Part shown: positions 36,032 through 56,237 of the stretch, in pieces | Layout: every line of letters begins with the position of its first letter | Numbering within the stretch: position 1 is the stretch's first letter | DNA from: Minisyncoccota bacterium | GTDB lineage: Bacteria > Patescibacteriota > Minisyncoccia > Phycocordibacterales > JABAAK01 | DNA length: 64,000 nucleotides | Direction of reading: 5' to 3' | Assembly (NCBI GenBank): GCA_965222235.1 | Contig: OZ244939.1 | Location: 323,396 to 387,395, forward strand | The notes under the pieces: generated by a model | Database searches by the model: none | The model's input: the letters and a program-made list of their open reading frames with translations, nothing else | Told to the model about the DNA's origin: nothing | Made by a program: the position numbers and the translations under genes

Positions 36032-36090
36032 TACAGCCAGTATATCACATATTCTGCCCCAAAAACGGCGCTGTGTCATATTGAGATGCT

Positions 36091-37599: not shown

Positions 37600-40293
37600 T
37601 TATCTAAATAAAATATATTGCGGTATTCCGGGTGATTGATCGGTCGTTTCATCGGCAAGCACAGCGTTGACATGCGCCCGTGTTTTCGGTCCGAAGAATC
37701 CGCGCGCCGGGGTGATACTGTTCGTCTCCTGATACTGCCTAACCGCATCCTGCGTCAGGGCACCGAAGTAGGTGGTTTCAAATCCCGGAGATCCCGCCCG
37801 TCCCGGCTCATTAATTGTGTATCCCTTTCGGTTAAGGAATTGCTGGAGTGCCCTGACATCCTCACCGATACTGCCGATGGTGAGATTGCGGGTGAATGAC
37901 GTTACCGTTGTTCCGGATGAACCCCGCTTTTCCCGTATCTCCAGTCGGGGCTCCTCGTGCTGCTGCCGTTGTGCTGCCAGCGGCGGTATTTCCTGCTGCT
38001 GTTGGCCCGGCTGTTGTTGTGCTGTCGGCAGCGGTATTTCCTGCTGCTGTTGACCCGGTTGTTTGTGTGTTGTCGGCAGCGGTATTTCCTGCTGCTGTTG
38101 ACCCTGCTGTTTTTGTGCTGTCGGTAGCGTAATTGACTGAGAAAAGGTGTCCAAAACTATATCTGTTGTAGGCGACAGGGCAGTAATCGTATTACTCGAA
38201 TCCTGCGTGTAGACCACCGTTGCCGAAGTGCCCGTCGGTATGCTTTCCGCCAAGGTAATATATATCTCACGTTCACAGTACTTCGTGTTGCCGGTGCCGT
38301 CGCAGGCATCAACATATACCGCGGTCGCCGCTATACTTCTTTCGTCACTCAGTTTCACAATGAAGTCGTCTGTAAAAAGTGTCCCATCGTGAAGCTGCTT
38401 GTTCAACCGCACCAGAACAGCAGCAGGGTCAGAAATATAGTGAGCGAATAAAACTTCGAGCGGTTCACTATAAATTAAATCCTTATACAGTTCCGTCAAT
38501 TCGGCTAATGTGTCCCGGAGTATCTTCCCCCTGCCGTTGTTCGCTTTCAACTGCCCCTCCATTTCATCCCTAAGCTCTGGTGTGATAAGGTTAAAGATTT
38601 CATCGTTAACATTCACTATTTGATGAAGGTTGGGGCTCCAGTCCACCTGAAACTCATTAATATCCAATGTTGCCGTATTTCCGTACTTGTCTTTGACAGT
38701 AATGACGCAGCCGTTGTAGATCACACCGTCATACAGATAGTTAAACTTTACTTCCGTGTCCGTGTCCGGTTCCACAATCGTCGGAGCGAGTTCCAGATGA
38801 CTGTCCTCGTAGGTGTTGCCGGAACTGCTCGTACAGTCACGACCGGTGTTGCCCGCTTTGGTGCTGTAGGTAACCCTCCCCCATTCGTTAGATCTGAACA
38901 CATATACCGGATACAAGGTATCGCTCGGAGACGGTACCGGCGTTACCTCAGTTAGTATCGGCGGCGTCGTGTCCGATGAAATAACAGTATAGGTAATTCC
39001 CAATGGTTCGGAGGTATTTCCGTAGTAATCCCGCACGCTGAAAGAACAGGTTTTTACTCCGCTAACTCCTGCATAGTCTCCTGATGTTATCGGCAGATCA
39101 CGCGCTTTTTCAAGGGTGACCGTATTTCCTCCATCTTTAACCCGTATAGACCCCCCCAGATCGAAAACAAACATACAGCCCCCCGGATCTGCCCGGGCGG
39201 CAACTAACACGCCACTTTCCGAGGAGTTAAAGGTATAGGTCGGCTCGGTCTTATCGTCTATAACCAGCGGTGAAACTTTTCCCGGAATAAGAGTCGGCGG
39301 TGTTGTGTCCGGAACATACTCAGCACAGGAGTTATCGAATTCCCGCCATACACCCGCATCGGTGCAGGTATACCCACAATTGCCCTGCCACCTTTTATTC
39401 GCATCGTCCGGATTTATACACACCCCCTGCATGGTATTACCCGGAGAAACAGTAAAGTTCAGAGAACAGTTCTTTATCGTTTCCGGAACACAATTCTTCC
39501 TCTCCCGCCGGCATGAGTTGGAACGCACCCTCCAGGTACTGTCGCCGCAGTAGTAGGTACACTCCCCAATCAGTCCGGAACCACATGTTCCGTCTTTTGA
39601 CTCTCCCGATCTGGCTAAGGGAAGGCTGCACTCCTCGTCTTTTGCACCCTTCACCCCCGCTGAGCAGCCGTCTTTCTCCATATGGCAGAGTATTGTCCCC
39701 CGAATAGAGTTTGATTCTTTTTCGCAGGTCCAGGAATAATGATTCAGATTCGTAAAATCACTGCCTTCCGTCAGCTTGCCGTTTATACAGGCATCCTTTG
39801 CAACGCCGCATTCAAGAGGGCGCGGAGCATTCGCATCATCGCCGCCGGTAAATAGCAAATATCGAATGTCAAAGTGGGCTACGCCGACACCCGATACTGA
39901 TTTCAAATCATACTGAATTGTTTGTGCATTGGCACCTGTGTAAAATACATACACCTCCGCCCCTGAAGGAAAGGGGCTCACCAGGTGTATGACAATCTCT
40001 CTAGTCGCCGTCTCGGTGGTTGTCGCGATATCAACGGAGGCAATCTCCCCTTTCCATCCCCCGTCGGCACCGACACGCAGGTCATTCCGCAGAATGTTGG
40101 CATGATAGTTTTCAACATAGACCGGTCGATCAAAAGTGATCGTCACCGATCGTTCCGTGTAAGTCCCCGCCGCCGGCCGAGGAGCACCCGACGGTGCGTT
40201 TTCATTGACGAAGATTTCCTGACCGTGCGCCGGAACAGCCCATGCGAGCAGAATAACCGCCATCAGAAAAATCATTCCGATGGGTATACGCAT
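37600..40293 (-). CDS. Large secreted surface protein (about 900 aa) with Gln-rich tandem repeats and a C-terminal peptidoglycan-binding (PG_binding_1-like) domain
   Basis: Signal peptide MRIPIGMIFLMAVILLAWAVPAHGQ. Many Cys pairs. Repeats QQGQQQQEIPLPT. The C-terminus GEDVRALQQFLNRKGYTINEPGRAGSPGFETTYFGALTQDAVRQYQ matches the PG_binding_1 pattern. Confidence 0.65.
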   Translation of the reverse strand: MRIPIGMIFLMAVILLAWAVPAHGQEIFVNENAPSGAPRPAAGTYTERSVTITFDRPVYVENYHANILRNDLRVGADGGWKGEIASVDIATTTETATREIVIHLVSPFPSGAEVYVFYTGANAQTIQYDLKSVSGVGVAHFDIRYLLFTGGDDANAPRPLECGVAKDACINGKLTEGSDFTNLNHYSWTCEKESNSIRGTILCHMEKDGCSAGVKGAKDEECSLPLARSGESKDGTCGSGLIGECTYYCGDSTWRVRSNSCRRERKNCVPETIKNCSLNFTVSPGNTMQGVCINPDDANKRWQGNCGYTCTDAGVWREFDNSCAEYVPDTTPPTLIPGKVSPLVIDDKTEPTYTFNSSESGVLVAARADPGGCMFVFDLGGSIRVKDGGNTVTLEKARDLPITSGDYAGVSGVKTCSFSVRDYYGNTSEPLGITYTVISSDTTPPILTEVTPVPSPSDTLYPVYVFRSNEWGRVTYSTKAGNTGRDCTSSSGNTYEDSHLELAPTIVEPDTDTEVKFNYLYDGVIYNGCVITVKDKYGNTATLDINEFQVDWSPNLHQIVNVNDEIFNLITPELRDEMEGQLKANNGRGKILRDTLAELTELYKDLIYSEPLEVLFAHYISDPAAVLVRLNKQLHDGTLFTDDFIVKLSDERSIAATAVYVDACDGTGNTKYCEREIYITLAESIPTGTSATVVYTQDSSNTITALSPTTDIVLDTFSQSITLPTAQKQQGQQQQEIPLPTTHKQPGQQQQEIPLPTAQQQPGQQQQEIPPLAAQRQQHEEPRLEIREKRGSSGTTVTSFTRNLTIGSIGEDVRALQQFLNRKGYTINEPGRAGSPGFETTYFGALTQDAVRQYQETNSITPARGFFGPKTRAHVNAVLADETTDQSPGIPQYILFR
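37975..38140. repeat. Tandem repeat of about 57 nt, three copies, in frame (encodes the QQPGQQQQEIPLPT repeats)
   Basis: GGCAGCGGTATTTCCTGCTGCTGTTG... recurs three times with minor substitutions. Confidence 0.7.
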
Positions 40294-40448
40294 TGCAAGC
40301 TGACAGGGATTCATTAACACCAATATACCACACGCTCAACAATGCCGAAAAGGAAGTGGAAAACAAAAAAGGTGCCATATATACATAGAGAAAAACTCCG
40401 CATACGCGGAGTTTGTCTCGTTCAGCAATTCGTTTGCCGAAGTAGTGC

Positions 40449-40967
40449 TTAGTCAGTGAAGTTGCAGGAACCGCCATCCTCTGCAATCTGCAGTTTCACC
40501 GGATCCGACCACGGACCAAGGGTGATGTTTGAGGTTGCGCCCGCATGCGGTGCTTGTACCGCCCTGACATAGAAGGTGATGTAACTGTCATCTTTGGGCA
40601 TAAGCCGCCATACTCTCATCGGCCAGCAGAAACCGCTGGTGGTAACGGAGAATGTCGTGTCATCGTTGCCTTCCATTAAGTAGTATGTCTCTCTATTCAG
40701 CACACTGTCGGTTCCCTGCTGATTCTGCATGAGAAAGGCAACCCGGTATCCGGTGGCACCGGTAACAGAATTCCACTTCAGAAGCTGACCGCCGTTATGC
40801 ATCTTGTTAAGATCACTGTCCGGATTCTTATGCTTGAACGCTCCGACAGTCTGTCCGAGGGGGTTTGCGCCGAACGCCGTCTGCGCTGTGAATGCGATAC
40901 CGAATACCGAAACAGCAACGAAACAGATTGCGAGAAACAGACCGCCCAGTGTATATGTCTTATTCAT
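40449..40967 (-). CDS. Small secreted FN3-like protein; paralog of the gene at 50451-50933
   Basis: Signal anchor. WNSVTGATGYRVAF, CWPMRVW, YVRAV and GPWSDPVKL...GGSCNFTD are shared with 50451-50933 (WDKHPQADGYRIVSY, CWIMRNW, YFRVR, GTWSESVKL...GACVFSD). Confidence 0.55.
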   Translation of the reverse strand: MNKTYTLGGLFLAICFVAVSVFGIAFTAQTAFGANPLGQTVGAFKHKNPDSDLNKMHNGGQLLKWNSVTGATGYRVAFLMQNQQGTDSVLNRETYYLMEGNDDTTFSVTTSGFCWPMRVWRLMPKDDSYITFYVRAVQAPHAGATSNITLGPWSDPVKLQIAEDGGSCNFTD

Positions 40968-41288
40968 ATCTTTTATGTGTTAGATTAAGAAAGTAATAAA
41001 TTTTAGTTACAAAATTCGGCATGTTCCCCTTTTTTATAACTCTGCATGTAGTATACCTGATACGCCATTACCATCGGTAAGGTTATACACAGCCCTTTCT
41101 TTCAGTGTATCAAACTATCCTTTAATTGCATGTCAAGTCCGGAAATATCCGCTTAGTATTCAAGCTATTATCGTCAAGAACAAAAGGGTTTTGTGCAACA
41201 CACTCACATCGCTACCATGTCAACAGACAGTGGTGCGCTGATCTGCTGTGTAAGGTATATAGGCGGTGAACAACGGTACGGCGGAGTA

Positions 41289-41318
41289 TGCACCAAAGAA
41301 CACCCCGCACGGATGTGC
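41289..41318 (-). terminator. Strong 13-bp hairpin downstream of the giant gene; probable terminator
   Basis: GAACACCCCGCAC-GGAT-GTGCGGGGTGTTC. Only a short T-run (TTTGG) follows on the minus strand. Confidence 0.4.
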
Positions 41319-41358
41319 GGGGTGTTCTCGGTCAGTGTTTCCGTATTCGTACCGGCGG

Positions 41359-44300
41359 TTACACTGTCTGACGATCGGCGATTATCTGATTGATTATCTC
41401 AATAAGTGCGAAAATAACCTGTTTCAGAAGCGCGATATAGTCATTGTAGAGCGAACTGTAGAGCTCGGGTGTGAGCACTCCCGTTATCGGAAGACCCTTT
41501 GACTCCTCATAGCACATAATCGCCCGGTGTGTCAGCGCACCGAAACGGTCCACTTCCTCCCCGTCTGAGCCGGCACCGTCTGTCGCAACCGGACATACTG
41601 TCTGGTTGAGCAGCTTCTGCGCCGATCGGATCTCGTCGGATGAATCGCCCAGGCGGTATGTCTGCACTATATTCCCATGAACATCGTCAATGATGGACGG
41701 CAGGGTGATATCGTTAAAAGATACCGGATTCTTCTGCTGTTCGGGAAGCAGCGAAGGCGCTTCCGTAAAAGATACCGGATCCTTCTGCTGTTCGGGAAGC
41801 AGCGAAGGCGCTTCCGTTGCAAGCACGCCGGACCATCCGCCGCCGCCGCTTCGGCCTCTTGTTTTCTTCTTTTTATTTCCTGTTCCATCGTTGCTGGTAT
41901 CGTCGGCAGTATCATCAGATCCACCGTTGTCAGTACCGGTATCGTCGGTGACAGTGTGGTCATCATTCTCGCCGTTCTGCCCGTCATTCTCCCGCTGATT
42001 GTTCAGGGGGGTTGACGGAGGCTGCGCCGATTGTTCGGGCTGGGGAGATGCAGCGACTTCAACTGTTTGCTCCGCCGTGCCGGTGTTCCCTGCCGCATCC
42101 GTCGCGGTGTAGGTGATGATGTAGGTACCGGGGATGGAAGTGTCCGCTGTGCCGGCAACTATCACGGTCTCTCCGCCGTTTGCGGTTGCAGTCAAATCAA
42201 TATCAGTAATGCTGCTTCCCTCTTCAACTTCAATAACAGCGTCACCGTTCAGCGTAACAAGCGGTGCAACCGTGTCCCTAGTGAAGGAATCTGAAGTCAC
42301 ATGGGTGTTGTTGTTCGCCTGATCTGTCGCCCGCACACATACTTTGTAGGCAGCATCTGCCACGGGAACATCAACAGTCTGAGGAATATCGGTGTTGAAG
42401 CCGGTTGTGGTGTCGTTACAGACCGCAGTATCGGCAATGAGCGCGTAGGTAAGAGTGACTGATCCGCCGTCATCTGTTGCGACCGGTTCGATGATCAGAT
42501 CAACGGATGTCTTTGTCTCCTCTGTGTTCAGGTATCCATCGGTAAGCACTGAGGTGAACGAGGGAGCGCTGACAGTCGGCGCAATGGTGTCGGCAACAGG
42601 AATTACCGTCACTGTTCTTTCCTTTGTCGCTCTGTTTCCTGCCGCGTCTGTTGCGGTGTAGGTGATGGTGTACTGACCTGCAGTGTCTGTGTCTATTGTC
42701 TCCGGTGAGGCAGTGACAGTCACTCCTGGCTCAGATGCTGCTCCCGGGTCAGTGTAGGTGTCTCCTACGGTGAGAAGGAGAGGGTTGTTACCGGTAAGGG
42801 TGATGACCGGTGCAGTAGTGTCTATCGTTATTGAACTGTCGGTTTCCTCTGATGGGTCAAATGTATTTTCCGCCATATCAGTGAAAACACCGATGTCGTA
42901 GGTGACTGCTCCATCGGGAGTATCCGTAGTTACCGTGTAGGTTGCAGTGTAGGTGTTTCCGTTTGCGCCTACTTCAGCGTCGTTACCCGCTATCTGTACC
43001 GTCGGGGCCTGGCTGAGGGTCTCTGAGACCGTGAAGGTGAGGGTGAGCCTGTCTCCTTCTTTTGCGTAGGCATTGTCGGTATTTGATGTTGCGAGTGTCG
43101 GGGTTTCCGTCAGATACGGTGCAACCATGTCACTGATGAAGGAATCTGAAGTCACATGGGTGTTGTTGTTCGCCTGATCTGTCGCCCGCACACATACTTT
43201 GTAGGCAGCATCTGCCACGGGAACATCAACAGTCTGAGGAATATCGGTGTTGAAGCCGGTTGTGGTGTCGTTACAGACCGCAGTATCGGCAATGAGCGCG
43301 TAGGTAAGAGTGACTGATCCGCCGTCATCTGTTGCGACCGGTTCGATGATCAGATCAACGGATGTCTTTGTCTCCTCTGTGTTCAGGTATCCATCGGTAA
43401 GCACTGAGGTGAACGAGGGAGCGCTGACAGTCGGCGCAATGGTGTCGGCAACAGGAATTACCGTCACTGTTCTTTCCTTTGTCGCTCTGTTTCCTGCCGC
43501 GTCTGTTGCGGTGTAGGTGATGGTGTACTGACCTGCAGTGTCTGTGTCTATTGTCTCCGGTGAGGCAGTGACAGTCACTCCTGGCTCAGATGCTGCTCCC
43601 GGGTCAGTGTAGGTGTCTCCTACGGTGAGAAGGAGAGGGTTGTTACCGGTAAGGGTGATGACCGGGGGTGTGGTGTCAACGAAGATATTAGTGTTTGTGT
43701 TCGCGCTAGGGTTAATGACATTGCCAAAGTATGAGATCTCCCCTATATCGTAGGTAACTTCTCCGTTGGGAGTATTCTCAGTCACCATGTAGGTTGCTGT
43801 ATAGATGGTTCTGCCGCTTTCGGTTACTTCACCTACTTCTACTGCAGCGTCGTTACCCGCTATCTGTACCGTCGGGATCCGGTTGGGGTCCGCCCAAAAG
43901 ACGGTGAAGGTCAGGGTCAGAGTATCTCCTTCTTTAGCCTGATGGGACACGAGATTATTTGAGGTAAATTCTATGTCTGTAAAGAACTCTATTACTGTGA
44001 CAGTTCGTTTTTCCCTTACCTGATTACCTGCCTCGTCATCCGCTACATATGAAATGGTGTATTTACCTGCGGTGTCTGTGTCAACCGTTCCTGTTGGTGT
44101 GACGGTCTCTCCTGTGTCAGCAGTTGCTCCCGGGTCAGTGTAGGTGTCTCCCACATCGAGAAAGAGGATCTTGCTACCCTTGAGTGTGATGACCGGTGCA
44201 GTTGTGTCAACGACGATACTGCTTGTTACCGGAGAGGGATTAGTGGTTCTGCCGATAATGTCTGTGAACTCTCCGATGTCGTAGATAACCGGTCCCTCGG

Positions 44301-46107
44301 GAGTATCCGAAGCCACCGTGTAGACTACGGTGTAAACTCCGTTGTCGCTTGCATCCTCAATCTCCGTGTAGGCTGCGTGCTCTGCGTGGGCTCCGCTGTT
44401 TCTTGACGATACTATTTTCTTGCCCGCTATGGTAACAGTTGGTGCCGTTACGAGTTCCGCGGAGGGGACGAAGGTCAGGGCCAGAACATCTCTTTCCTTT
44501 GCAAAAACAGGGCTGGGGTTACCTGTGGTGAGGACCTCTAAAGAGAGTGAGAGGGGCTTGGCGTATACATTTCTCAATACCGCGACTCTGTTGCCTTCGT
44601 TGCCTACCATGTTTCCCGCAACATCCCTGATCTGGAAGTCAGCTCGAACGGCCGAAATTGAAGCTCTTGAGCAGTAAGCTTCATGGTCAATGAATTGGTA
44701 GTACCGGAGATAGGGACCGACTCCTCTGAAATCGGTAGATGTGATGGTGGCGGTTACAGATGCCTCTTCCTTGGTGGTTGAAAAAGAGGCGGAATTTATT
44801 GTAAGCCTGTTGCGACCCTTCTTCATTATAAATCCTCCGGTTTCATATGTATTACCTGCCGGACAGGTAGCTATTTCTGATATAGGGGTGTTCTCGGTTC
44901 CTGCCGCATCAAACCATACAGGTTCGTCGAAAGTGATCGTTATTGTTGCCGTGTCGTCATTAATGACATATTTTGCTGAGGTGATACGCGGTGGTAAGGT
45001 GTCGTCCACCAGAAGGACCTGCACTCTGACCGTTCGTGTCGTTGTGTCGATGTTCCCTGCCGCGTCTGTCGCGGTGTAGGTAATGGTGTAGTCACCTGCA
45101 GTGTCTGTGTCAACCGTTCCTGTTGGTGTGACCTCTACTCCTTCGGTAGCAGTTGCTCCCGGGTCAGTGTAGGTGTCGCCCACAGTGAGAAGGAGAGGGT
45201 TGTCTCCGGTAAGGGTGATGACCGGTGCAGTGGTGTCTATCATTATTGAATTGTCGGTTTCCTCAAATGGGTCAGCAGTGTTGTCCGCCATATCAGTGAG
45301 GATGCCGATGTTGTATGTGACTGCTCCATCGGGAGTATCCGTAGTTACCATGTAGGTTGCGGTGTAGGTGTTTCCGTTTGGGGTTACTTCAGTGCTGTTA
45401 CCCGCTATCTGCACCGTCGGGGTCTGGCTGAGGGTCTCTGAGGTCATGAAGGTGAGGGTTAGGGTGTCTCCTGCTTTTGCGTAGGCACTGTTGGCATTTG
45501 ATGAGGTGATGTCCTGTGTGATGATGGTCGGTACAGTGGCGTCTGTGGTGGTTACCTCTGCTGCTCTACGTGTTGAGACAACCTTGCCTCTTGCCATGTT
45601 TTCCGCAACATCCCTGATCTGGAAGTCAGCTTCTTCAAGTAGGTTAAAATCTCCTGAAGAACAGTAGGCTACCTGGTTAGTGAAGGGATAGTATTCAAGT
45701 CGGGGAGAGCTGGTTCCGAAACTGGCAGCTGTGATGGTGACGGTTACGGATGCTCCTTCCTCTGTGGTTGGAAGAGAGACGGAATTTATTGCAAGCCTGC
45801 GCCCTCTCACCCTCAGTTCAAATCCTCCGGTTTCCTCTGATCTACCACCCTCCGTACAGGTAAATTCTTCTGATATAAGATTATTATCGGTTTCTGCCGC
45901 ATCAAACCATACCGGTTCGTTGAAGGTGACCGTTATTGTTTCCGTGTTATCGTCATTAGTAACATATGTGGCTGCAGTGAGATACGGTCGTGTGGTGTCA
46001 CTCGTGGCAAATATGGAGGTTGTCGTCGCTATCGTTACGGTGATACATGCAAGAATAGCCGCACCTATGTACAGCCTTGTTTTTATAGTGTTTTTTGTGT
46101 TATTCAT
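41359..46107 (-). CDS. Giant secreted surface protein (about 1583 aa) built from repeated Ig-like (DUF5011-like) modules with a C-terminal PG-binding-like domain
   Basis: Signal peptide MNNTKNTIKTRLYIGAAILACITVTIATTTSIFA. At least five modules carry PVITLTG(N/D)NPLLLTVGDTYTDPGA...TDTAG.YTITYTATDAAGN. A Gly/Asp/Thr-rich linker, then LGDSSDEIRSAQKLLN...DRFGALTHRAIMCYEESKGLPITG. Confidence 0.7.
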   Translation of the reverse strand: MNNTKNTIKTRLYIGAAILACITVTIATTTSIFATSDTTRPYLTAATYVTNDDNTETITVTFNEPVWFDAAETDNNLISEEFTCTEGGRSEETGGFELRVRGRRLAINSVSLPTTEEGASVTVTITAASFGTSSPRLEYYPFTNQVAYCSSGDFNLLEEADFQIRDVAENMARGKVVSTRRAAEVTTTDATVPTIITQDITSSNANSAYAKAGDTLTLTFMTSETLSQTPTVQIAGNSTEVTPNGNTYTATYMVTTDTPDGAVTYNIGILTDMADNTADPFEETDNSIMIDTTAPVITLTGDNPLLLTVGDTYTDPGATATEGVEVTPTGTVDTDTAGDYTITYTATDAAGNIDTTTRTVRVQVLLVDDTLPPRITSAKYVINDDTATITITFDEPVWFDAAGTENTPISEIATCPAGNTYETGGFIMKKGRNRLTINSASFSTTKEEASVTATITSTDFRGVGPYLRYYQFIDHEAYCSRASISAVRADFQIRDVAGNMVGNEGNRVAVLRNVYAKPLSLSLEVLTTGNPSPVFAKERDVLALTFVPSAELVTAPTVTIAGKKIVSSRNSGAHAEHAAYTEIEDASDNGVYTVVYTVASDTPEGPVIYDIGEFTDIIGRTTNPSPVTSSIVVDTTAPVITLKGSKILFLDVGDTYTDPGATADTGETVTPTGTVDTDTAGKYTISYVADDEAGNQVREKRTVTVIEFFTDIEFTSNNLVSHQAKEGDTLTLTFTVFWADPNRIPTVQIAGNDAAVEVGEVTESGRTIYTATYMVTENTPNGEVTYDIGEISYFGNVINPSANTNTNIFVDTTPPVITLTGNNPLLLTVGDTYTDPGAASEPGVTVTASPETIDTDTAGQYTITYTATDAAGNRATKERTVTVIPVADTIAPTVSAPSFTSVLTDGYLNTEETKTSVDLIIEPVATDDGGSVTLTYALIADTAVCNDTTTGFNTDIPQTVDVPVADAAYKVCVRATDQANNNTHVTSDSFISDMVAPYLTETPTLATSNTDNAYAKEGDRLTLTFTVSETLSQAPTVQIAGNDAEVGANGNTYTATYTVTTDTPDGAVTYDIGVFTDMAENTFDPSEETDSSITIDTTAPVITLTGNNPLLLTVGDTYTDPGAASEPGVTVTASPETIDTDTAGQYTITYTATDAAGNRATKERTVTVIPVADTIAPTVSAPSFTSVLTDGYLNTEETKTSVDLIIEPVATDDGGSVTLTYALIADTAVCNDTTTGFNTDIPQTVDVPVADAAYKVCVRATDQANNNTHVTSDSFTRDTVAPLVTLNGDAVIEVEEGSSITDIDLTATANGGETVIVAGTADTSIPGTYIITYTATDAAGNTGTAEQTVEVAASPQPEQSAQPPSTPLNNQRENDGQNGENDDHTVTDDTGTDNGGSDDTADDTSNDGTGNKKKKTRGRSGGGGWSGVLATEAPSLLPEQQKDPVSFTEAPSLLPEQQKNPVSFNDITLPSIIDDVHGNIVQTYRLGDSSDEIRSAQKLLNQTVCPVATDGAGSDGEEVDRFGALTHRAIMCYEESKGLPITGVLTPELYSSLYNDYIALLKQVIFALIEIINQIIADRQTV
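41722..41815. repeat. 47-nt perfect tandem duplication inside the giant gene (TEAPSLLPEQQK[D/N]PVSF x2)
   Basis: GATACCGGA(T/A)TCTTCTGCTGTTCGGGAAGCAGCGAAGGCGCTTCCGT(A/T)AAA is repeated twice back to back. Confidence 0.7.
42282..43665. repeat. Perfect 529-bp direct repeat (42282-42810 and 43137-43665; period 855 bp) within the giant gene
   Basis: The ORF track shows identical 68-aa ORFs at 42455-42661 and 43310-43516. The nucleotide identity was checked by eye across about 529 bp. It encodes the identical 176-aa segment PVITLTGNNPLLL...THVTSDSF twice. Confidence 0.9.
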
Positions 46108-46564
46108 GGTGTTTTTGTTGGTGTCATCACGGTATATTAATTGGCAGGATTGACGCTTTTTCATACACAATATATGCTAAAACCCTGTATATACAAGGTT
46201 TTCTAATGAAAATAGAGGTATGGTTTACGGTATTCAGTGTTTCTCCTGCACGTGAAAAATTGGTAATGTCACATACATTCAACTGATGCTATAGTAGCAT
46301 ATATAGTATATTTTGTCAATAAATCATCGCCTAAGTTCAAACAAATAATAGAACACTTGTCATATATACAGCAGGTAACACTGGGAAGCATTCCTGCTTC
46401 CTCTGCGGTGAATTGTGTATACCGTCAGGCAGGAGGAAGGCGGAGCATATTGTCTCTTTTTTAAAGTATTTTTAACTTCAACGCTATGCGCAAACACCAC
46501 CTGAACAACACAAAAGCGGGGATTCTGCTTCAAATAATCGGAGCTCAACCCTGAAATTGACTAT

Positions 46565-48655
46565 GTGTTACACTGTACGGTAATGTATCGGACACGCCGG
46601 GTAAGATATCACAAAATATTCCGCCATACCCCGTATTTGTACTTACTGATAGCACTGTGCATCAGTATCAGCACACCGCTTGCCGCTATTTCAGAACAGG
46701 AGATAGGTGCGAATCCGCCTATGACACTCACGGGAATATTGAGTTTAGAGAATACGAATATTGACACACTCATATATGACGCTGACACGCGTACCGGCGC
46801 CATTCTGCACGATGCTTTTTTCACTCTTAATGACACACTATATACCATCAGCCGCATAGAAGTAACGCCCGACAGATTTTCCCTGCAGATAAAACAAGAC
46901 GGTCAGGAGACGGATGAAGCAGCCGTCCTCGCCGATCGATATATTGTATTTAAAAAAGAATTCTCCGTCATAGGATACATTGACGCGAACATGGTCGCTC
47001 CGCATACTGCACATCCTGATATGGCATCAATACCGCTTGCCGCCGGGAACGGTCTGCAAAAAGACGATTTTCTCTCGGATCGCACGTTTGAAATAACAAC
47101 CGTTAAGCCGATTGTGAACAGATATCCGGAAGAACTGCAGCCGCTGCCGGATATAACGCGGCGCCTTGCGGACGGACCGATCACCCTGCACCTCACGGAA
47201 TACTACAAAGATCCGGAAGGTACGCAACTCTCATTCCGCTCGTCTCTTGACGGTCCGTGCTGTGTGGCGCACCACAGCATACAGGGAAACGTTCTCACTC
47301 TCACGCCGATTGGCGCGGGTGCAACGACAATTGAAGTGGAAGTGTACGACACCCCGGGATATTTGGAAACGGGGAGTATAGAGATTGAAATACTGCCGGG
47401 CGATTCACCGGCGGCAAAAGACAGTAATCCGCCGATTATCACAAACGAAAAAACTATTGAGGTATCCTCGGCCATAACACCCGCTGTAACAGTCACCGTT
47501 GATCATCAGGCGTATGCCGGAGAAAATTTGCAGGTCATTTTTGACGGTTCCGATGCCTGCAAACAGCTCTCCTCCGATACTGTTGAGGGCACAAGCATTG
47601 ATACAAGGCCGGCGAGAGCGATATACAGCGGGATTCTTACCGGCGGCACACAAACAACTCCCGCCGCTTACGGCTATCGGGAATCGGAACACATCGGAGA
47701 TCTCACACCGGCGACGGTTGAAATGAACGGTGTTGTGTATCGCATAACAGAACTGCTGTACGACACTAATCGGATAACACTGCGCACGGAGGAAGATGCG
47801 GAGGAGTCAGAGACAGCGGAAACCGAGACAGCAAAGAAATATCCCGCTTTATCCGATCACTATCTGATATTTAAAAATAACAATGAAACCCTGATCGGAT
47901 ATGCTGTTATAGAAACTTCTGCGGAAAACGGGGAGGCATTCAGTGTGCCGCTTGAGAGCGCGTCACCGCTGCGCAATCAACGATGGTTTGACGGCACGGC
48001 ACACACCGCCGTTGAACTCACCGCGAACAAACCCGGAGGCATGCGCGTCATTCCGCCGCAAACCTACACCGCGACAATTATCGGCCCGCCGGGAATCTAC
48101 AGCGGCTGCACTCTCACGGTGGAAAACCGTGCCGGTCATCGGGCGAAAAAGCCGGTGCCGCTCTCTACATTCACTGTTCTGCGAAGTGAAGAAGAGAAAG
48201 AAGCGGAACTGCGCCGACGGTACCCGAATGCATACGCACCGTTTGTTCCGGAACAGCAGACACCGAAAAAACAGTATTCCCTGTTCATCGCACATGAAGA
48301 GAAAGAAGACGCGAAAAAATTGCTGCTGATAGGAAAATTAGCATTGCGGTTGGCAGGTCCGGATATCAGCACCAGCAGCGTGCAAAAAGTTAATCTCGGC
48401 AGGAGATCAAACATTCCGGAAGTCCGCGACCTGCAGGTGTTCCTCAATCTCGCCGACTACACCGTGGCGCAAACCGGATGGGGATCCCGCGGCATGGAAA
48501 CAGAATATTTCGGACCGGCGACGGAAAGAGCGACAAAAGCGTTTCAAAAAGAAAATGGCATACAAGTCACCGGCGATTTAGATCAGGAAACTAAAACTAC
48601 GATACGCAATGCTGTTCTCATTAAAATAACAGAGTTTCTGAGCGACTGGCAATAA
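46565..48655 (+). CDS. Secreted repeat protein (about 690 aa) with a C-terminal peptidoglycan-binding domain
   Basis: Signal peptide (...LYLLIALCISISTPLAAISEQ), with an alternative start at 46583. Internal duplicated modules (YTISRIEVTPDRFSLQIK / YRITELLYDTNRITLRTEED). The C-terminus VRDLQVFLNLADYTVAQTGWGSRGMETEYFGPATERATKAFQKENGIQVTGDLD is PG_binding_1-like. Confidence 0.6.
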   Translation: MLHCTVMYRTRRVRYHKIFRHTPYLYLLIALCISISTPLAAISEQEIGANPPMTLTGILSLENTNIDTLIYDADTRTGAILHDAFFTLNDTLYTISRIEVTPDRFSLQIKQDGQETDEAAVLADRYIVFKKEFSVIGYIDANMVAPHTAHPDMASIPLAAGNGLQKDDFLSDRTFEITTVKPIVNRYPEELQPLPDITRRLADGPITLHLTEYYKDPEGTQLSFRSSLDGPCCVAHHSIQGNVLTLTPIGAGATTIEVEVYDTPGYLETGSIEIEILPGDSPAAKDSNPPIITNEKTIEVSSAITPAVTVTVDHQAYAGENLQVIFDGSDACKQLSSDTVEGTSIDTRPARAIYSGILTGGTQTTPAAYGYRESEHIGDLTPATVEMNGVVYRITELLYDTNRITLRTEEDAEESETAETETAKKYPALSDHYLIFKNNNETLIGYAVIETSAENGEAFSVPLESASPLRNQRWFDGTAHTAVELTANKPGGMRVIPPQTYTATIIGPPGIYSGCTLTVENRAGHRAKKPVPLSTFTVLRSEEEKEAELRRRYPNAYAPFVPEQQTPKKQYSLFIAHEEKEDAKKLLLIGKLALRLAGPDISTSSVQKVNLGRRSNIPEVRDLQVFLNLADYTVAQTGWGSRGMETEYFGPATERATKAFQKENGIQVTGDLDQETKTTIRNAVLIKITEFLSDWQ

Positions 48656-48662
48656 CAGATGC

Positions 48663-50165
48663 CTACTGTTTCTCATTAAGGAACGCGATATCCCGTTCAA
48701 ACTTCCGCGCGCTGGAAACAACAGCTCTGCAATAGTTCAACGCCACCCGGGAATCCCACCAACTTCCCGCATAGTAGCGCCGCGCCGCCCTGCATTCATC
48801 TGTAGCGGCGCCGAGGTGCTGCACATACAGCGCGGAAGCGAAGAATGCATCCCGCGGATTCCACGGATCAGACGGCATGTCCGATTTTGTCATCCTCCGC
48901 ACAACATCCCGCCGGCTGTCATAACGCCACGGTCCCGAATAGAAATTAAGCTGATTAATTGCGTTGCGCGTCGCCGGACCGACACTGCCGGTACCGCGGG
49001 TGTATCCGTACTGCCGCAGTATTCGTTTTGAATATTTATTCTGAAATGTAATAACCGCCTTACCGACCGCGTGTGTGTACTGATCCGTCTCATTACCGGG
49101 ACTTCCCGGACCGCTCTTTGCGACAGTAAAACCGTTTCTGTTGAGAAATTCCTGCAGCCGCCGCACATCGGAACCGTCGCTGCCGACCGACAGCCGTTTG
49201 TTCGTTCGAATAACGCCGGTAGTTGGCATGCATGTATTTGTCTTTTCGTTCAGTAAACCGCCGAGACATACCCATGTTGAAGGAATAAACTGCGCCGGAC
49301 CCATTGCGCCGCCCCAACCGAACCCGGGACTTTTGGAAACCGGCATATCTTCGGCGATGTAGCCGAGCGTTTCAATGATAAAAGGAAATACCGGAAAATC
49401 CCGCGTCGGATGCATGGGCGCCGTCAGATATGTTGCCGATCCGATATTGTGACCGAGCCGTGATTCGGTCCTGATGAGTCCGAGAAGAAACGCCGGCCGT
49501 ACGCCGGTTATCTCCGATACCTGCTCCGCATATCGCAGTGCCTGTTCAAACGAAAGTGCAACGCCGCCCCGTACGCCGAAAATCTTGTTTCGGATCGCTG
49601 CCGCCCTGTTCTCATACGAACCCGTCTGCTGCATCTCTTTTTCCGGTGAAGAAATATAGCTGAGGAGTGATCGCTTTTCTTCAATATATTCTTCAAGCTG
49701 CTCAATAAGGGCGTACTGCTGACGAACATAGCGCTCCCGCTCTCCTTTTTTATTTTCCAAAGAAACACTGTGTGCCTCAAGCCGCTCTCTCAGCGCATCT
49801 GATTCCGTCGTCTGCAATGGATGCCGCAAAACACCCGCCTCCCGTTCCGCATCCGCAATTTCACCGTTCAAATCACTTATGCTGTTGTTGTTTGAAGAAA
49901 AATTCAAAAGCAACGCCTCAATCTCCCGATCAATAAGACGGAGTGTGTGCTGCGCACGACTCCTTTCCTGCATCGCATCCGCCAAAAGCTTTTCCGCTTC
50001 CCCGATTCTTTTTTCGCAATCCTCAAGCGCCTTCTCCAAAATTTCCCTGTCAACACTAAGATTGGTAAAACAGCCTTCTCCCTCCGCATGTGCCGGCACA
50101 GTGCCCCCCGATACGGACAAAAACAGGCTTCCGAGGATGAATACATACAACCATGCCCCTTTCAT
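48663..50165 (-). CDS. Secreted coiled-coil protein with a lytic-transglycosylase-like (lysozyme-fold) region and a PG-binding domain
   Basis: Signal peptide MKGAWLYVFILGSLFLSVSGGTVPAHA. An N-terminal coiled coil of about 180 aa. TESRLGHN...GAMGPAQFIPSTW and ...ALYVQHLGA...RYYAGSWW resemble SLT motifs (E-S...G.MQ..P.T; YNAG). VRRLQEFLNRNGFTV...GNETDQYTHAVGKAVITFQ is PG_binding_1. Confidence 0.5.
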   Translation of the reverse strand: MKGAWLYVFILGSLFLSVSGGTVPAHAEGEGCFTNLSVDREILEKALEDCEKRIGEAEKLLADAMQERSRAQHTLRLIDREIEALLLNFSSNNNSISDLNGEIADAEREAGVLRHPLQTTESDALRERLEAHSVSLENKKGERERYVRQQYALIEQLEEYIEEKRSLLSYISSPEKEMQQTGSYENRAAAIRNKIFGVRGGVALSFEQALRYAEQVSEITGVRPAFLLGLIRTESRLGHNIGSATYLTAPMHPTRDFPVFPFIIETLGYIAEDMPVSKSPGFGWGGAMGPAQFIPSTWVCLGGLLNEKTNTCMPTTGVIRTNKRLSVGSDGSDVRRLQEFLNRNGFTVAKSGPGSPGNETDQYTHAVGKAVITFQNKYSKRILRQYGYTRGTGSVGPATRNAINQLNFYSGPWRYDSRRDVVRRMTKSDMPSDPWNPRDAFFASALYVQHLGAATDECRAARRYYAGSWWDSRVALNYCRAVVSSARKFERDIAFLNEKQ

Positions 50166-50450
50166 TTCGCGACGCACAACACGAAAACACACAGCAATCA
50201 TTGGCACCAGTATACCACAACCATCTTTTTGTTCCCTCATTCGCGACCGTGATCAGCGACGGCACTCGGATTGTTGAGATCAAAAGAGCCCCCCATGTCT
50301 CGCCCGTGGGTGCCGCCGCCGAACGGCAGAAAATACGTATGAGTGGTCACACCACCCTGCTACCCACAAAAAAAGCCCCGGTACTTCAGGGCTTTTTTCG
50401 GATATCTTGTGTGATATCTTGATACAAACTGATTCGGTTATTTCTCTGCC

Positions 50451-50933
50451 TTATTGATCACTGAATACACACGCTCCGGTATCCAGTTTTACAGACTCAC
50501 TCCATGTACCCAAGTCATCTCTTACTTGCACCCCTCTTGCATCCTCGTCAGTACCATTTACGCCATTGTGACGATACGGTCTGACACGGAAATAAACATC
50601 CTTGGCTTCGCCGTACGGATAGTACCAATTTCTCATTATCCAGCAGTAGTCCCAACGACTTGACCACGATGCCCGGTCGGCTCCCGCCTGTCTGGTGTAC
50701 GCCAAATCGTCATAATCATCTCCTTCAAAATAGCTAACAATACGATACCCGTCAGCTTGAGGATGCTTATCCCAACTGATAGTTAGGCCGCCGTTGTGAG
50801 TGAAGTTTGTTACCGGTGCAAGATATCCTCCGGCGAATACATGTTGCGCCAAAAACATCATACTCACAAGTGCAAAAGCGATAAGGCCGATTGTTAGTAA
50901 CAACCCCCCTGATGTATGTAATGCGTTATTCAT
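50451..50933 (-). CDS. Small secreted FN3-like protein; paralog of the gene at 40449-40967
   Basis: Signal anchor MNNALHTSGGLLLTIGLIAFALVSMMFLAQHVFA. Motifs are shared with 40449-40967. Confidence 0.55.
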   Translation of the reverse strand: MNNALHTSGGLLLTIGLIAFALVSMMFLAQHVFAGGYLAPVTNFTHNGGLTISWDKHPQADGYRIVSYFEGDDYDDLAYTRQAGADRASWSSRWDYCWIMRNWYYPYGEAKDVYFRVRPYRHNGVNGTDEDARGVQVRDDLGTWSESVKLDTGACVFSDQ

Positions 50934-51176: not shown

Positions 51177-51839
51177 CTACTTCCCCAGATTAACGGACAC
51201 CCCGCCGAAATCTTCCATGATCCAGTCAAACTCCTCCCTTGAAAAGTCCGGCCACAGGGTTTTGGTAAAGTAAAGCTCCGCATACGCCGCTTCCCACAGC
51301 AGAAAATTTGACAGCCGTCTCGCGTTCCCGGTTCGGATAATCAGATGGGGGTACGGCATGCCCTTCGTGCTCAGCACATCGCGGAACATGTCCTCATCAG
51401 CCGGTTTTCCCGCGGCGATAAGTATATTGGCGGCGCGCACAATATCCCACCGCGCACCGTACGAAAAAAGAATCCACAGCCGCAGACCCCGGTTCCGGCT
51501 CGTTTTCTCCCTGATTCTCTCCAGCGTTTTCCGGGCATGCGCGGGACATCGTTCAATATCCCCGATCGGCAGCACCCGCACATCCTCCCCGACGCGCAGA
51601 TCCTCCGACAGTAACTTGAATACCGCATTGATATCATCCGAGCCCCGGTTCCAATTCTCCGTGGAAAAGGCGTAGACCGCAACATCGGTAATCCGGTGCT
51701 TCCGCGCCCAGGATACGACATCAAAGAGCTTTGCAAGTCCCTCGGCATACCCTTCCTGCAGCGACACGCCGCGCCCCTTCGCCCACCGCCGATTGCCGTC
51801 AACGATAAGACCGAGACAGAAGGTGTGTGTATGCTCCAT
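51177..51839 (-). CDS. uppS: Undecaprenyl-diphosphate synthase (cis-isoprenyl transferase)
   Basis: LIVDGNRRWA, VYAFSTENWNR and LIIRTGNARRLSNFLLWEAAYAELYF are hallmark UppS boxes. ATG at 51839; the longer ORF reads through the antisense tRNA. Confidence 0.85.
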   Translation of the reverse strand: MEHTHTFCLGLIVDGNRRWAKGRGVSLQEGYAEGLAKLFDVVSWARKHRITDVAVYAFSTENWNRGSDDINAVFKLLSEDLRVGEDVRVLPIGDIERCPAHARKTLERIREKTSRNRGLRLWILFSYGARWDIVRAANILIAAGKPADEDMFRDVLSTKGMPYPHLIIRTGNARRLSNFLLWEAAYAELYFTKTLWPDFSREEFDWIMEDFGGVSVNLGK

Positions 51840-51858
51840 ATATATAGCGTCTGCTGCT

Positions 51859-51930
51859 GCCGGACCAGGGCTCGAACCTGGATTAACGGGACCAAAACCC
51901 GTCGTCCTACCAATTAGACGATCCGGCATG
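51859..51930 (-). tRNA. tRNA-Gln (anticodon UUG)
   Basis: 72-nt cloverleaf TGCCGGA-TC-GTCT-AATTGGTA-GGAC-G-ACGGG-TTTTGGT-CCCGT-TAAT-CCAGG-TTCGAGC-CCTGG-TCCGGCA-G. A U1:A72 first pair as in E. coli tRNA-Gln. Confidence 0.85.
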
Positions 51931-51963
51931 GCGAAACGGAGACAGTGTACCACACCCCCCGCA

Positions 51964-52398
51964 TCACCCCCAGACAAAACGACTCCCGACAGACACACCG
52001 AACCGACGCGCAAAACCCGCCGGTACCTCAAGCACATACCGCGCGGGAAACGGAGAAGTGAATGTCCCGGGAAATGATTCGGGAGAAACATCCTCCGCCA
52101 GATGCACTACCTGTTTCCCGGCATCAAGCCATAAGATATCAATTGAAAAATACATATCTTTCATCCAGATGGAGTGCGGACCGTCATGCGGAAATACAAA
52201 CAGCATGCCGCATGTGTCACACAGCGATTCCCGGTGCGACAGACCGAGCGTGCGCTCCTCGGGAGTCAGCGATATATCCGCGTGTATGGCGATATCACCA
52301 AAAAAAATCTCAACCCGGGAATCGTGCGGCAACCGGAACATGACCGCGACAATCAGCAGAAGGGCGAAAAGGATGAGCGGAAGAACACGGACTGTCAT
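51964..52398 (-). CDS. DUF192 family protein (COG1430-like)
   Basis: N-terminal TM helix. GLSHRESLCDTCGMLFVFP, IWMKDM, SIDILWLD and YVLEVPAG fit the DUF192 consensus. Confidence 0.6.
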   Translation of the reverse strand: MTVRVLPLILFALLLIVAVMFRLPHDSRVEIFFGDIAIHADISLTPEERTLGLSHRESLCDTCGMLFVFPHDGPHSIWMKDMYFSIDILWLDAGKQVVHLAEDVSPESFPGTFTSPFPARYVLEVPAGFARRFGVSVGSRFVWG

Positions 52399-53858: not shown

Positions 53859-54820
53859 CTTAATGGTTCAATACATTTGCACATGAGTGTACCACATCTA
53901 TGGGTTTCTTAAGGTCAATGCCGAAATGCGGTCTCTCATGGTTGTAATGATGGAGGTATTGGGCGTATTGTTCTCTGAGATCGTCATATTCTTTGAAAGG
54001 AGCCTTGTAGTAGATGAACTCCTCCTCATCAGTCCTGAACGATCGTTCAATGACGGCATTCTCGTTAGGACTTGATTTGTGAATATAGTGGTGTTTTGTA
54101 CAGAGAGCAGTTACATGGGTATGGAATCTTTTTTGAAATTCAAGACCGTTATCCGTTTGGATGAATACTGTTCTGAAGGGTAGACGGTTCACTATTTCCG
54201 TCATAGCTGAAATGGCATTATTCTGATTCAGATCATTGTATATGACGGCATCCTTGTATCGGGAGTAAATGTCTATGATGGCATACTCGAAACAGGTCCA
54301 GGGCAATCCTGTCAATTCAGGGGTGAGGTACTTCACATCCATCTGGAGGTAGCCGACGGTTTCAGCGTTCTTTGCGTGCATATGTACTGTATTCTGACAC
54401 AAGGGACGACGATGTCGCTTCTTCTGTCGTATGTAGCCACGGGCTATCAGGAACCGTTTCACCGTACTTACTGATACCGCTATACCGGTTTCCTCCCTGA
54501 GTTTCTCGGCACACCATCCCCGTTTCTGCCTCATTGCCGCAATGACTACTCTTTCCTCCCCGGAGAGTGCCGGTTCCCTCAGTCTCTTCGGTCTCGTGCT
54601 CTTCCGCTGCAGTCCCCGCATGACATACCGCGGTTCCCCGTAGGGATACGGTGACCGTGCCCGTCTCAGCCACCGGGATACCGTGGTTCTGTGGATACCG
54701 AGCAGTTCAGCAGTATGCTGTATATCTCTTGTTTCTTTGTATATTTGAATGATTTTCTTGGGATGTTGTCTCATACATCTGCAGTATCGCTGCTATGTGC
54801 AAATGTATTGAACCATTAAG
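53859..54820. mobile_element. IS481-family insertion sequence (962 bp) with 26-bp perfect terminal inverted repeats and a 6-bp target-site duplication GGTGGT
   Basis: Left inverted repeat CTTAATGGTTCAATACATTTGCACAT (53859-53884) is the exact reverse complement of the right one (54795-54820). GGTGGT sits at 53853-53858 and 54821-54826. There is a single transposase ORF. Confidence 0.8.
53860..54774 (-). CDS. IS481-family transposase (HTH plus rve/DDE integrase core)
   Basis: N-terminal HTH (ELLGIHRTTVSRWLRR) and a DDE core (...IQTDNGLEF...NAVIERSFRT...). 304 aa. The stop lies inside the left inverted repeat. Confidence 0.8.
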   Translation of the reverse strand: MRQHPKKIIQIYKETRDIQHTAELLGIHRTTVSRWLRRARSPYPYGEPRYVMRGLQRKSTRPKRLREPALSGEERVVIAAMRQKRGWCAEKLREETGIAVSVSTVKRFLIARGYIRQKKRHRRPLCQNTVHMHAKNAETVGYLQMDVKYLTPELTGLPWTCFEYAIIDIYSRYKDAVIYNDLNQNNAISAMTEIVNRLPFRTVFIQTDNGLEFQKRFHTHVTALCTKHHYIHKSSPNENAVIERSFRTDEEEFIYYKAPFKEYDDLREQYAQYLHHYNHERPHFGIDLKKPIDVVHSCANVLNH

Positions 54821-54881
54821 GGTGGTGCAAGAAAAGTGCCGCACACAGTACTGTGCACGGCATCTATATACCCCGAATGTA

Positions 54882-55157
54882 TCAGCGGTGCTCGGCGCAA
54901 TAGGCGCTGACACCGTCAGGAAAATAGTGCACATCCGTGGCGAAAAGGTAGAAGGGGTTCCTGCCGCCGGCAAAAACCTTCTGCCAATAGAAGAATGGCA
55001 TGCGGGGTTTTGAGACACTTGTCCGCATCCTGCCGGTTTCGCGGTCATAGTGATATCGGACAGTTTTCCGTGTTGCTGTCTTGCCGCAGCCGTTGTGGTC
55101 GCACTTACAGCGGATTTCCTTCCGTCCGTCGGGCAGTGTCCGCACTGATACCGTCAT
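54882..55157 (-). CDS. Cys/His-rich small protein B (92 aa; paralog of A)
   Basis: Strong Shine-Dalgarno GGAGGAGG then ATG 55157. It lies in the 421-bp gap between the two IS elements. Confidence 0.6.
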   Translation of the reverse strand: MTVSVRTLPDGRKEIRCKCDHNGCGKTATRKTVRYHYDRETGRMRTSVSKPRMPFFYWQKVFAGGRNPFYLFATDVHYFPDGVSAYCAEHR

Positions 55158-55241
55158 TGCCTCCTCCGTCGGTTGTGAAAAACCTAACCTAATATATATT
55201 GTACAATATAATAAAATATTGTCAATGCTCTCCTGTAATGT

Positions 55242-56237
55242 GCAAGGACATATTGCACCCCCAGCGGTAACATATCCAGTAATGACGATATATATGCCCC
55301 AAACATCACAAGAAGAACGATGGCGGTGGATCCGCCCCATTATCACGAATGAGCTGACCTACGATCAGGTGCTGCGCATGTGTCCGCACAGTAGGAGAAC
55401 TCTGAAATATTGGGTTTCCCGTTATCGTGATGAGGGAGAGGGTGGATTGGTGCCGCGCAGCACCAGACCGAAGCGGAGTCCGGAAAGGACTTCCGAAAAG
55501 GTGCGGAAACAAGTCATCAGAAAAAGAAAGGAAACAGGATTCTGCGCGAAGAAACTGCACTGGCGTCTGGAAAAGGAAGGACTGTCAGTGCCGGTGCGAA
55601 CCATCGGGAAGATACTGAATGATGAGGGATTGGCCAGAACCTACCGAAAAAGAAAAACACGGTACACCTACCTGCCACGGGTATGGATGCCGGGAGATAT
55701 GGTGGAGATTGATGTGAAGCATGTCCCCCAAAAGATTGAAAACAGAAGGTATTTCCAGTACACCGCCGTTGACCTGGGAAGTAGGTGGCGGCTGCTTGAT
55801 GTCTTTGAGGAACAGTCATCACGGAACTCCGTCCGGTTCCTTGACCTGTTCAGAACAGTGTTTCCTGTACCGGTTATCAGTGTGAAAACAGACAATCACA
55901 GCACCTTCACCAATTACTATGTCGGTTCAAACAAACGATCCGATATGACCGTGAAAACACTCCACCAGCCGGATGTCTACTGTAGAGAGAATACCATCAT
56001 CCACTATCTCATTGACCCCGGGAAACCGACTCAGAACGGCACCGTTGAACGAAGTCACCGCGAGGACAATGAGAAGTTCTACCGAAAAAACACCTTCTCT
56101 GATTTCTCCGATCTGCAGAAAAAACTCCGTGTCTGGAACGACACCTACAACGACCTTGAGCACTGCTCCTTAAACGGAAAAACTCCCAATGAAATGCTAC
56201 AATTATTGCAACCGCAAGGGGTGCAATATGTCCTTGC
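55242..56237. mobile_element. Second, distinct IS481-family insertion sequence (about 1.0 kb) with 20-bp terminal inverted repeats
   Basis: GCAAGGACATATTGCACCCC at 55242-55261 is the reverse complement of 56218-56237. The transposase ORF fills the element. No clear target-site duplication was identified. Confidence 0.6.

Follow-up and report, generated by a model that had tools for sequence, protein, structure and literature searches.

A patescibacterial cell-envelope gene cluster as a probable composite of a conserved transglycosylase pair, putatively wall-anchored surface proteins and two orphan FN3-fold paralogs

The stretch of DNA analysed here (the window, 64 kb of a 641-kb contig) carries between positions 37600 and 50933 a cluster of six genes, comprising four large proteins with peptidoglycan-binding (PG-binding) modules, one of which is a lytic-transglycosylase-like protein (the SLT protein), and two small paralogs, A and B. 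We conclude that the locus is probably a composite of three layers, and neither a single system nor a cassette bounded by the paralogs. The first layer consists of the SLT protein and its convergently encoded partner of 690 amino acids (aa), which most likely remodel the peptidoglycan of the cell itself in growth or division. The second consists of two surface proteins of 897 and 1582 aa, putatively held on the wall, and the third of A and B, orphan proteins that would be secreted or membrane-anchored. An earlier note on this DNA described a cell-envelope or host-interaction cluster bracketed by the two paralogs; its general reading holds. The cluster itself is ordinary but well defined, and the apparent bracketing seems structurally meaningless.

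The open reading frame (ORF) calls of the window agree with the earlier note on the coordinates of all six genes. The gene at 46565-48655, however, for which a minus-strand orientation had been implied, lies on the plus strand and converges with the SLT gene. All six proteins begin with a hydrophobic, signal-like segment. The genes are as follows.

37600-40293, minus strand: 897-aa predicted secreted protein (ORF of 907 aa) with signal peptide, beta-rich ectodomains, Q-rich spacer and C-terminal PG_binding_1 module
40449-40967, minus strand: small protein A, 172 aa, with an N-terminal signal peptide or signal anchor and a putative FN3-fold domain
41359-46107, minus strand: giant surface protein, 1582 aa (ORF of 1603 aa), with Ig-like repeats
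46583-48655, plus strand: 690-aa predicted secreted protein (ORF 46565-48655, 696 aa), partner of the SLT protein
48663-50165, minus strand: lytic-transglycosylase-like protein, 500 aa, predicted secreted (ORF of 525 aa), with SLT_2 and PG_binding_1 domains
50451-50933, minus strand: small protein B, 160 aa, paralog of A with the same architecture

Homologs of the SLT protein that bear names belong to Candidatus Kaiserbacteria, Campbellbacteria, Paceibacterota and other Patescibacteria, which points to a small-genome, Kaiserbacteria-like lineage of Patescibacteria, class Paceibacteria, as the source.

The PG_binding_1 family (PF01471) has a Pfam gathering cut-off of 23 bits, and three of the large proteins score above it: the 897/907-aa protein with 37.3 bits, the 696-aa ORF with 43.5 bits and the SLT protein with 32.4 bits. 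The giant protein reaches 20.6 bits, under the cut-off. We count its module as a diverged copy of the family because hhalign matches it to an alignment of six sequences, from the other modules and their orthologs, with 97% probability (E = 4e-11, 62 columns). The view that four large neighbouring proteins, that at 37600-40293 included, carry such modules is therefore borne out, by Pfam for three and by hhalign for the giant. The module had also been described as C-terminal in all four; this applies to three of them, whereas that of the SLT protein is internal (residues 356-403 of 525).

37675-37866, minus strand: PG_binding_1 of the 897-aa protein (residues 820-883 of the 907-aa ORF)
41455-41640, minus strand: putative diverged PG_binding_1 of the giant protein (Pfam and hhalign)
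48416-48598, plus strand: C-terminal PG_binding_1 of the 690-aa protein
49032-49175, minus strand: inserted PG_binding_1 of the SLT protein

These are exactly the four PG_binding_1 modules of the window, and all lie within five consecutive genes, which would arise by chance with a probability of about 4-8e-4 (taking 50-65 genes). The most similar pair is formed by the modules of the 897-aa and SLT proteins, with 38% identity over 92 aa. Judging from the family assignment, all four modules are predicted to bind peptidoglycan.

The SLT protein exceeds the SLT_2 cut-off of Pfam by a narrow margin (25.1 against 24.3 bits, profile positions 27-167 of 292 aligned), in agreement with the transglycosylase assignment already proposed.

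49269-49694 plus about 95 C-terminal aa, minus strand: SLT_2 catalytic domain (Pfam and conserved residues)
about 49509-50060, minus strand: coiled coil, about 180 aa long (matches SMC and EnvC)

Across 14 SLT homologs, the residues E259-S260, G314-A316-Q317-F318 and Y489-Y490-A491-G492 are invariant; we take these E-S, GPAQF and YYAG sites to be the lytic-transglycosylase motifs. The PG_binding_1 module sits between the second and the third of them, and some 95 conserved residues of the catalytic domain come after it, which makes it an insertion into that domain and not a C-terminal anchor. Against the NCBIfam equivalogs for MltB, NF008029 and TIGR02283, the protein scores 16.7 and 15.5 bits, far below the cut-offs of 449 and 248 bits, and we regard it as a distant relative and not as an MltB ortholog. 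The family itself is widespread, the homologs numbering over 1900 in the protein search and the loci over 500, and those with names are nearly all Patescibacteria. The insertion, on the other hand, is confined to a Kaiserbacteria-like clade; distant patescibacterial homologs of about 470 aa are without it.

The 690-aa partner has a signal peptide and an internally duplicated module of about 110 aa (repeat E = 6e-5). Its gene and the SLT gene are convergent, with stop codons 7 bp apart in the window, and this arrangement recurs in relatives: the two genes end at 48655/48663 in the window, at 11539/11553 in locus L002, at 11551/11567 in L003 and at 11545/11540 in L085. The ends are thus 7-15 bp apart in the window and three of the four relatives, with a few-base overlap in L085; two small called genes lie between the pair in L086. 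Since there is too little space for terminators between the convergent genes, their transcripts would extend into the gene opposite, with antisense interference as a possibility.

The conservation pattern separates this pair from the rest of the cluster. DNA homology with the closest relative covers 46516-50247 only (88% identity), that is, the SLT gene and its partner (3.7 kb), and ends short of both B and the giant gene. The SLT gene with a convergent PG_binding_1 partner of about 690 aa is retained in all four relatives (L002, L003, L085 and L086), and the flanks differ each time. The SLT proteins of the four are 89, 70, 69 and 58% identical to that of the window, and the 690-aa orthologs of the two closest are 85% and 64% identical. 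This is the reverse of the pattern expected of a variable cassette, a changing content between constant borders: the interior pair is conserved and the surroundings vary. Farther out in the class the association is lost, and in L005-L007 as well as in more distant loci the SLT gene lacks the partner as a direct neighbour. The pair has mraY, ftsW, murG, Mur ligase, FemAB or peptidase M23 genes as neighbours in L003, L085 and L086, and in the window uppS is adjacent. Because of this conservation and gene neighbourhood, the SLT protein and its partner would most likely act on the wall of their own cell.

We also observed that a class I aminoacyl-tRNA synthetase gene lies directly upstream of the SLT gene in L003 (7051-9213) and L086 (7745-9958), whereas the corresponding gene of the window (21690-23840; about 72% nucleotide identity) stands at a distance of 25 kb, across the locus. 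Its position shows a rearrangement between these lineages.

The second layer comprises the 897-aa and the giant protein, both of which have, by sequence, the architecture of non-covalently wall-anchored surface proteins. The earlier suggestion of non-covalent wall anchoring is accordingly plausible for the three proteins with a C-terminal module, that of the SLT protein being internal. Both proteins carry a tandem-repeat spacer before the module, and the giant gene contains a long duplication.

37968-38129, minus strand: 48-nucleotide tandem repeat, 3.4 copies, encoding the 16-aa Q-rich unit PTAQKQQGQQQQEIPL; spacer directly before the PG-binding module of the 897-aa protein
41715-41817, minus strand: 51-nucleotide tandem repeat, 2 copies, encoding the 17-aa unit TEAPSLLPEQQKDPVSF; spacer before the PG-binding module of the giant protein
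42262-42810 and 43117-43665, minus strand: 549-bp duplication, 99.3% identity, offset 855 bp, encoding an Ig-like unit
41292-41332, minus strand: intrinsic terminator of the giant gene, -32.9 kcal/mol, z -6.6

In the giant protein, Pfam finds PF16403 (Bact_surface_Ig-like; 243 bits in five stretches) and HYR (48.6 bits), and NCBIfam an OmpL47-type domain; an N-terminal module is duplicated. With multiple PF16403 repeats above the cut-off and an N-terminal hydrophobic segment, it qualifies as a candidate Ig-like surface adhesin, and the Ig-like repeats named in the earlier note are upheld. The 549-bp duplication looks like a recent, intragenic event, typical of the repeat-driven variation of adhesins. 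The ectodomain of the 897-aa protein, including a Cys-rich segment suspected to be sushi-like, matches nothing in Pfam, NCBIfam or PDB. This segment (residues about 170-345; 38900-39700) shows the motif G-x-C-x-Y-x-C-x-D-x-x-W-x(6)-C twice and could represent a new disulfide-rich module. Neither the 897-aa ectodomain nor the giant protein has a homolog in any of 86 related loci, the generic PG-binding module excepted. We suppose that the two proteins would leave the cell through Sec and that the PG-binding module would keep them non-covalently on the wall, with the Q/P-rich tandem-repeat spacer crossing the wall and the ectodomains pointing outward in an adhesin-like manner.

A different role for the same proteins deserves consideration, in which the modules and the transglycosylase target the peptidoglycan or pseudomurein of a host, and the giant and FN3 proteins serve as adhesins of an epibiont. 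Highly expressed extracellular proteins of Paceibacteria with PG-binding and Ig-like domains have been proposed to act in host attachment (PMC10936435), and a part in breaching the envelope of the host has been suggested for lytic transglycosylases of Patescibacteria (PMC11665869). A giant gene that is lineage-specific, rich in repeats and recently duplicated would also fit a fast-evolving host-interaction protein. However, the conserved SLT pair sits among the wall-synthesis and division genes of the cell itself in relatives, the near-universal occurrence of SLT homologs in the class (over 500 loci) fits housekeeping better, and a spacer followed by a C-terminal module is the topology expected for anchoring on the own wall. 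We consider a host-directed function unlikely.

Another proposal is compatible with own-wall remodelling and refines it: the coiled-coil transglycosylase would be an effector of an FtsEX-type switch, like EnvC, PcsB or CwlO, and the 690-aa protein its regulator or partner. The profile of the N-terminal coiled coil matches the coiled-coil domains of EnvC (8hd0_E, E = 1.3e-7) and of an M23 peptidase (8tzk_E), and the pair adjoins ftsW, murG, mraY and M23 genes in relatives. Signal peptide, coiled coil and peptidoglycan hydrolase domain follow each other as they do in PcsB, CwlO and RipC. The EnvC match is, however, composition-biased (bias 23 against a score of 33 bits), the same region matches coiled coils of SMC and pore-forming toxins as well, and neither ftsE nor ftsX is among the called genes of L002, L003, L085 and L086. 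To our knowledge, there is no FtsEX effector with a lytic transglycosylase domain. The EnvC-like coiled coil thus suggests FtsEX-type control as a lead, not a finding, and we hold this refinement to be doubtful.

The third layer consists of A and B, which align end to end with 27% identity (E = 9e-17) and are, on this evidence, true paralogs, as the earlier note had recognised. Of the motifs then named, CWxMRxW, GxWSxxVKL and GxCxFxD are common to both, along with a conserved Cys pair, whereas 'W..V.GA.GYR' is only partly shared (W....A.GYR). Protein A contains a 22-aa insertion with CWPMRVW and a C-terminal extension with a conserved Cys; the insertion of B carries CWIMRNW. In an alignment with FN3-like repeats, the insertion falls before strand F of the FN3 domain. 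The N-terminal hydrophobic segments (MN...T.GGL.L.I...A......F.AQ..F) are unusually conserved for paralogs of 27% identity and may act as a signal peptide that is cleaved, as a signal anchor or as a special signal for sorting. The conserved N-termini also raised the idea of a type IV pilin-like leader, which was ruled out, as there is neither a G-F-T-L-I-E motif nor an N_methyl hit.

In word-indexed searches against 5.8 billion clusters, each of the two proteins retrieved nothing but itself, and an exhaustive HMMER profile search of 1.84 billion representatives found A and B as the only full-length members. A sequence search of PDB gave only noise, and none of the 86 related loci contains a homolog. 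By these searches, A and B are orphans. At E <= 1e-3 their profile also matches 364 large multi-repeat proteins, mainly over profile positions 55-110, the W..V.GA.GY.V part of FN3-like repeats, and the five of these that were checked all have Pfam fn3, GH85_C or both. No family of Pfam or NCBIfam, FN3 included, matches A or B at E <= 0.01, and the model is a seven-strand beta-sandwich that superposes on solved FN3 domains. The profile hits to FN3-like repeats and the modelled fold, taken together, point to an FN3 fold with a Cys-containing insertion. The FN3-like character claimed earlier is therefore supported by fold and profile and finds no Pfam hit.

Each of the two genes is followed by its own terminator.

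40388-40419, minus strand: intrinsic terminator of gene A, hairpin and U-tract, -27.1 kcal/mol, z -6.2
50367-50400, minus strand: intrinsic terminator of gene B, 14-bp stem and U-tract, -25.3 kcal/mol, z -4.5, separating B from the SLT gene

Upstream of A and of B there is AT-rich intergenic DNA of about 240-390 bp. Given their own terminators and this upstream DNA, A and B are monocistronic, each a transcription unit separate from the large genes. In our view, their positions would reflect local gene birth and duplication in a plastic region.

As a separate observation, L003 encodes at the position of B relative to the SLT gene (9386-9922, plus strand) a 178-aa secreted protein with a classical FN3 domain and an FG-GAP-like tail. 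Among the 86 loci, a small FN3 gene upstream of SLT occurs only there and in L004, the same site on a second contig. We rejected this ORF as an ortholog of B (hhalign probability 0.6%, no BLASTP alignment) and regard it as at most a positional analog, which may have been acquired independently or be a positional ortholog that has diverged extremely.

A bolder combination would make the SLT pair a division hydrolase system specific to Patescibacteria, in which a lytic transglycosylase takes the place of the amidase activator or endopeptidase and is coupled by an EnvC/PcsB-like coiled coil to FtsEX or some other membrane switch, with A and B as newly born, fast-evolving, lineage-specific surface ligands. 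We offer it as speculation and give it little credence.

The idea of a shared chaperone or adaptor role for A and B, raised in the earlier note, may be narrowed to proteins that bind the PG_binding_1 protein encoded directly downstream, or aid its export or wall attachment. It draws on the gene order, since A precedes the 897-aa gene and B the SLT gene, each on the same strand, and on the PG-binding modules of these two proteins being the most similar pair; the unrelated small FN3 protein upstream of SLT in L003 may be added. Nevertheless, strong terminators separate A and B from the genes downstream, so that they are distinct transcription units, the orthologous pair does without A and B, and the SLT genes of L002, L085 and L086 have no such gene upstream. 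Furthermore, A and B are orphans while the SLT family is widespread, and B and the FN3 protein of L003 share no detectable similarity. We consider such a role very improbable.

The idea that A and B are duplicated borders of a surface-protein cassette that is variable or mobile is largely refuted and scarcely credible. In its favour, the two flank about 9.5 kb in one orientation, two IS481-like transposase genes are 3-5 kb away and the flanks of the SLT pair differ in every relative. Against it, the conserved segment 46516-50247 falls within the supposed cassette and takes in neither of the paralogs, which share no DNA repeat, are at 27% protein identity products of an old duplication and occur in no other genome by cluster and profile searches; no integrase or recombinase lies at the boundaries, the IS481-like genes (53860-56241) are outside the locus, GC content is typical of the window, and A itself stands between two 'cargo' genes, leaving the 897-aa PG-binding gene outside the bracket.

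Several points weigh against the three-layer composite that we prefer. The locus is known here from its genes, and their sequences fit both modules that anchor a protein on the own wall and modules that bind the wall of a host. Neither the 897-aa nor the 690-aa protein has an ectodomain with a family match in Pfam, NCBIfam or PDB. Signal peptides were assigned by eye and not with a predictor, and the n-region of B has no basic residue at all (zero Lys/Arg). The alignment used for the FN3 model consists largely of FN3 repeats, which biases it toward the FN3 fold, and an AlphaFold2 model of A from an alignment of A and B only was poor (predicted local distance difference test score, pLDDT, 47.7) and was left out of the fold search. 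Lastly, the clustering of PG-binding genes was judged within the 64 kb of the window.

The surroundings show several further features. GC content is 0.47-0.53 in the genes of the locus, against a window mean of 0.51 and 0.43-0.585 in housekeeping genes, so that the base composition of the locus does not deviate from the window, and a scan of its long intergenic regions with Rfam returned zero RNA families. Next to the cluster, just past pyrB, lies a gene for a further exported protein, a secreted Beta_propel protein of 764 aa (PF09826, 508 bits; 33785-36079, minus strand). A low-GC island at 30000-34000 (about 35% GC, compared with about 51% in the window) adjoins tRNA-Ala (30093-30167). Within this island are an N6/N4 DNA methylase gene (31133-31993) and two ORFs without a Pfam match (32152-32745 and 32908-33615), and it is probably a horizontally acquired restriction-modification or defence islet. 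The 23S and 5S rRNA genes (24201-27349, minus strand) have no 16S gene upstream, where YchF and other protein genes come next; unlinked rRNA genes are common in small-genome Patescibacteria.

On the other side, the locus neighbours uppS, whose longest ORF (51177-52091) contains tRNA-Gln(UUG) (51856-51928, minus strand) in its 5' part. The true start of uppS should therefore lie downstream, near the methionine of MEHTHTF... at about 51800. Beyond it, 3-5 kb from the locus, stand two divergent genes for IS481-family transposases (53860-54774, minus strand; 55081-56241, plus strand), with rve/rve_3 and helix-turn-helix domains and, in the second, LZ_Tnp_IS481. This pair suggests a rearrangement-prone region.

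Patescibacteria are ultrasmall and mostly uncultivated, and how they build their envelopes and hold on to partner cells is largely unknown. The locus offers candidates for experiments, namely three proteins with a clear wall-anchor architecture, the widely conserved coiled-coil transglycosylase with its clade-specific PG-binding insertion and conserved partner, and two orphan FN3-fold proteins. The chief value of the analysis is a corrected annotation, from which the interpretation as a bracketed cassette has been removed.

In comparison with known systems, the closest class is that of the highly expressed extracellular proteins of Paceibacteria (Ca. Yanofskyibacterium and Ca. Minisyncoccus; Kuroda et al., mBio 2024, PMC10936435), which are secreted, have PG_binding-type modules or Ig-like folds and are proposed as surface or attachment factors, much as we propose for the present ones. 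Since extracellular proteins with PG-binding and Ig-like domains have thus been reported in the class, the locus leaves current ideas unchanged. Those proteins were defined by expression data, whereas ours are defined by genes and likened to them by class and not by sequence comparison. In the parts considered, that paper describes neither a clustering of four PG-binding genes nor the conserved SLT pair.

The family 3 lytic transglycosylases (MltB/Slt35, SLT_2), many of which have PG_binding_1, resemble the SLT protein in the SLT_2 hit, the E-S and later motifs and the PG_binding_1 module. In the SLT protein, however, this module is inserted in the catalytic domain instead of being appended to it, and a putatively secreted coiled coil of about 180 aa takes the place of the N-terminal lipobox. 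EnvC, PcsB, CwlO and RipC likewise have a secreted N-terminal coiled coil followed by a C-terminal domain of the peptidoglycan-hydrolase type, and the division-gene neighbourhood in relatives adds to the likeness. The catalytic domain differs, being a lytic transglycosylase and not M23, CHAP or NlpC/P60, and the coiled-coil match may be compositional.

Non-covalently wall-anchored proteins of Gram-positive bacteria (LysM, SLH, CWB2, GW, SH3b, PG_binding_1) show the same succession of signal peptide, ectodomains, low-complexity spacer and C-terminal wall module, and the surface proteins of the locus have no LPXTG sortase signal. The anchor here is a patescibacterial variant of PG_binding_1 with a G-x-GS-x-G-x-ET insertion, and two of the proteins have ectodomains without a family match. 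Compared with the extracellular FN3 domains of bacteria (fn3, GH85_C-type), A and B fall below all Pfam FN3 thresholds and stand alone as single-domain proteins rather than as repeats in large enzymes or adhesins, distinguished by the 22-aa CWxMRxW insertion, the GxCxFxD C-terminal extension and the Cys pair.

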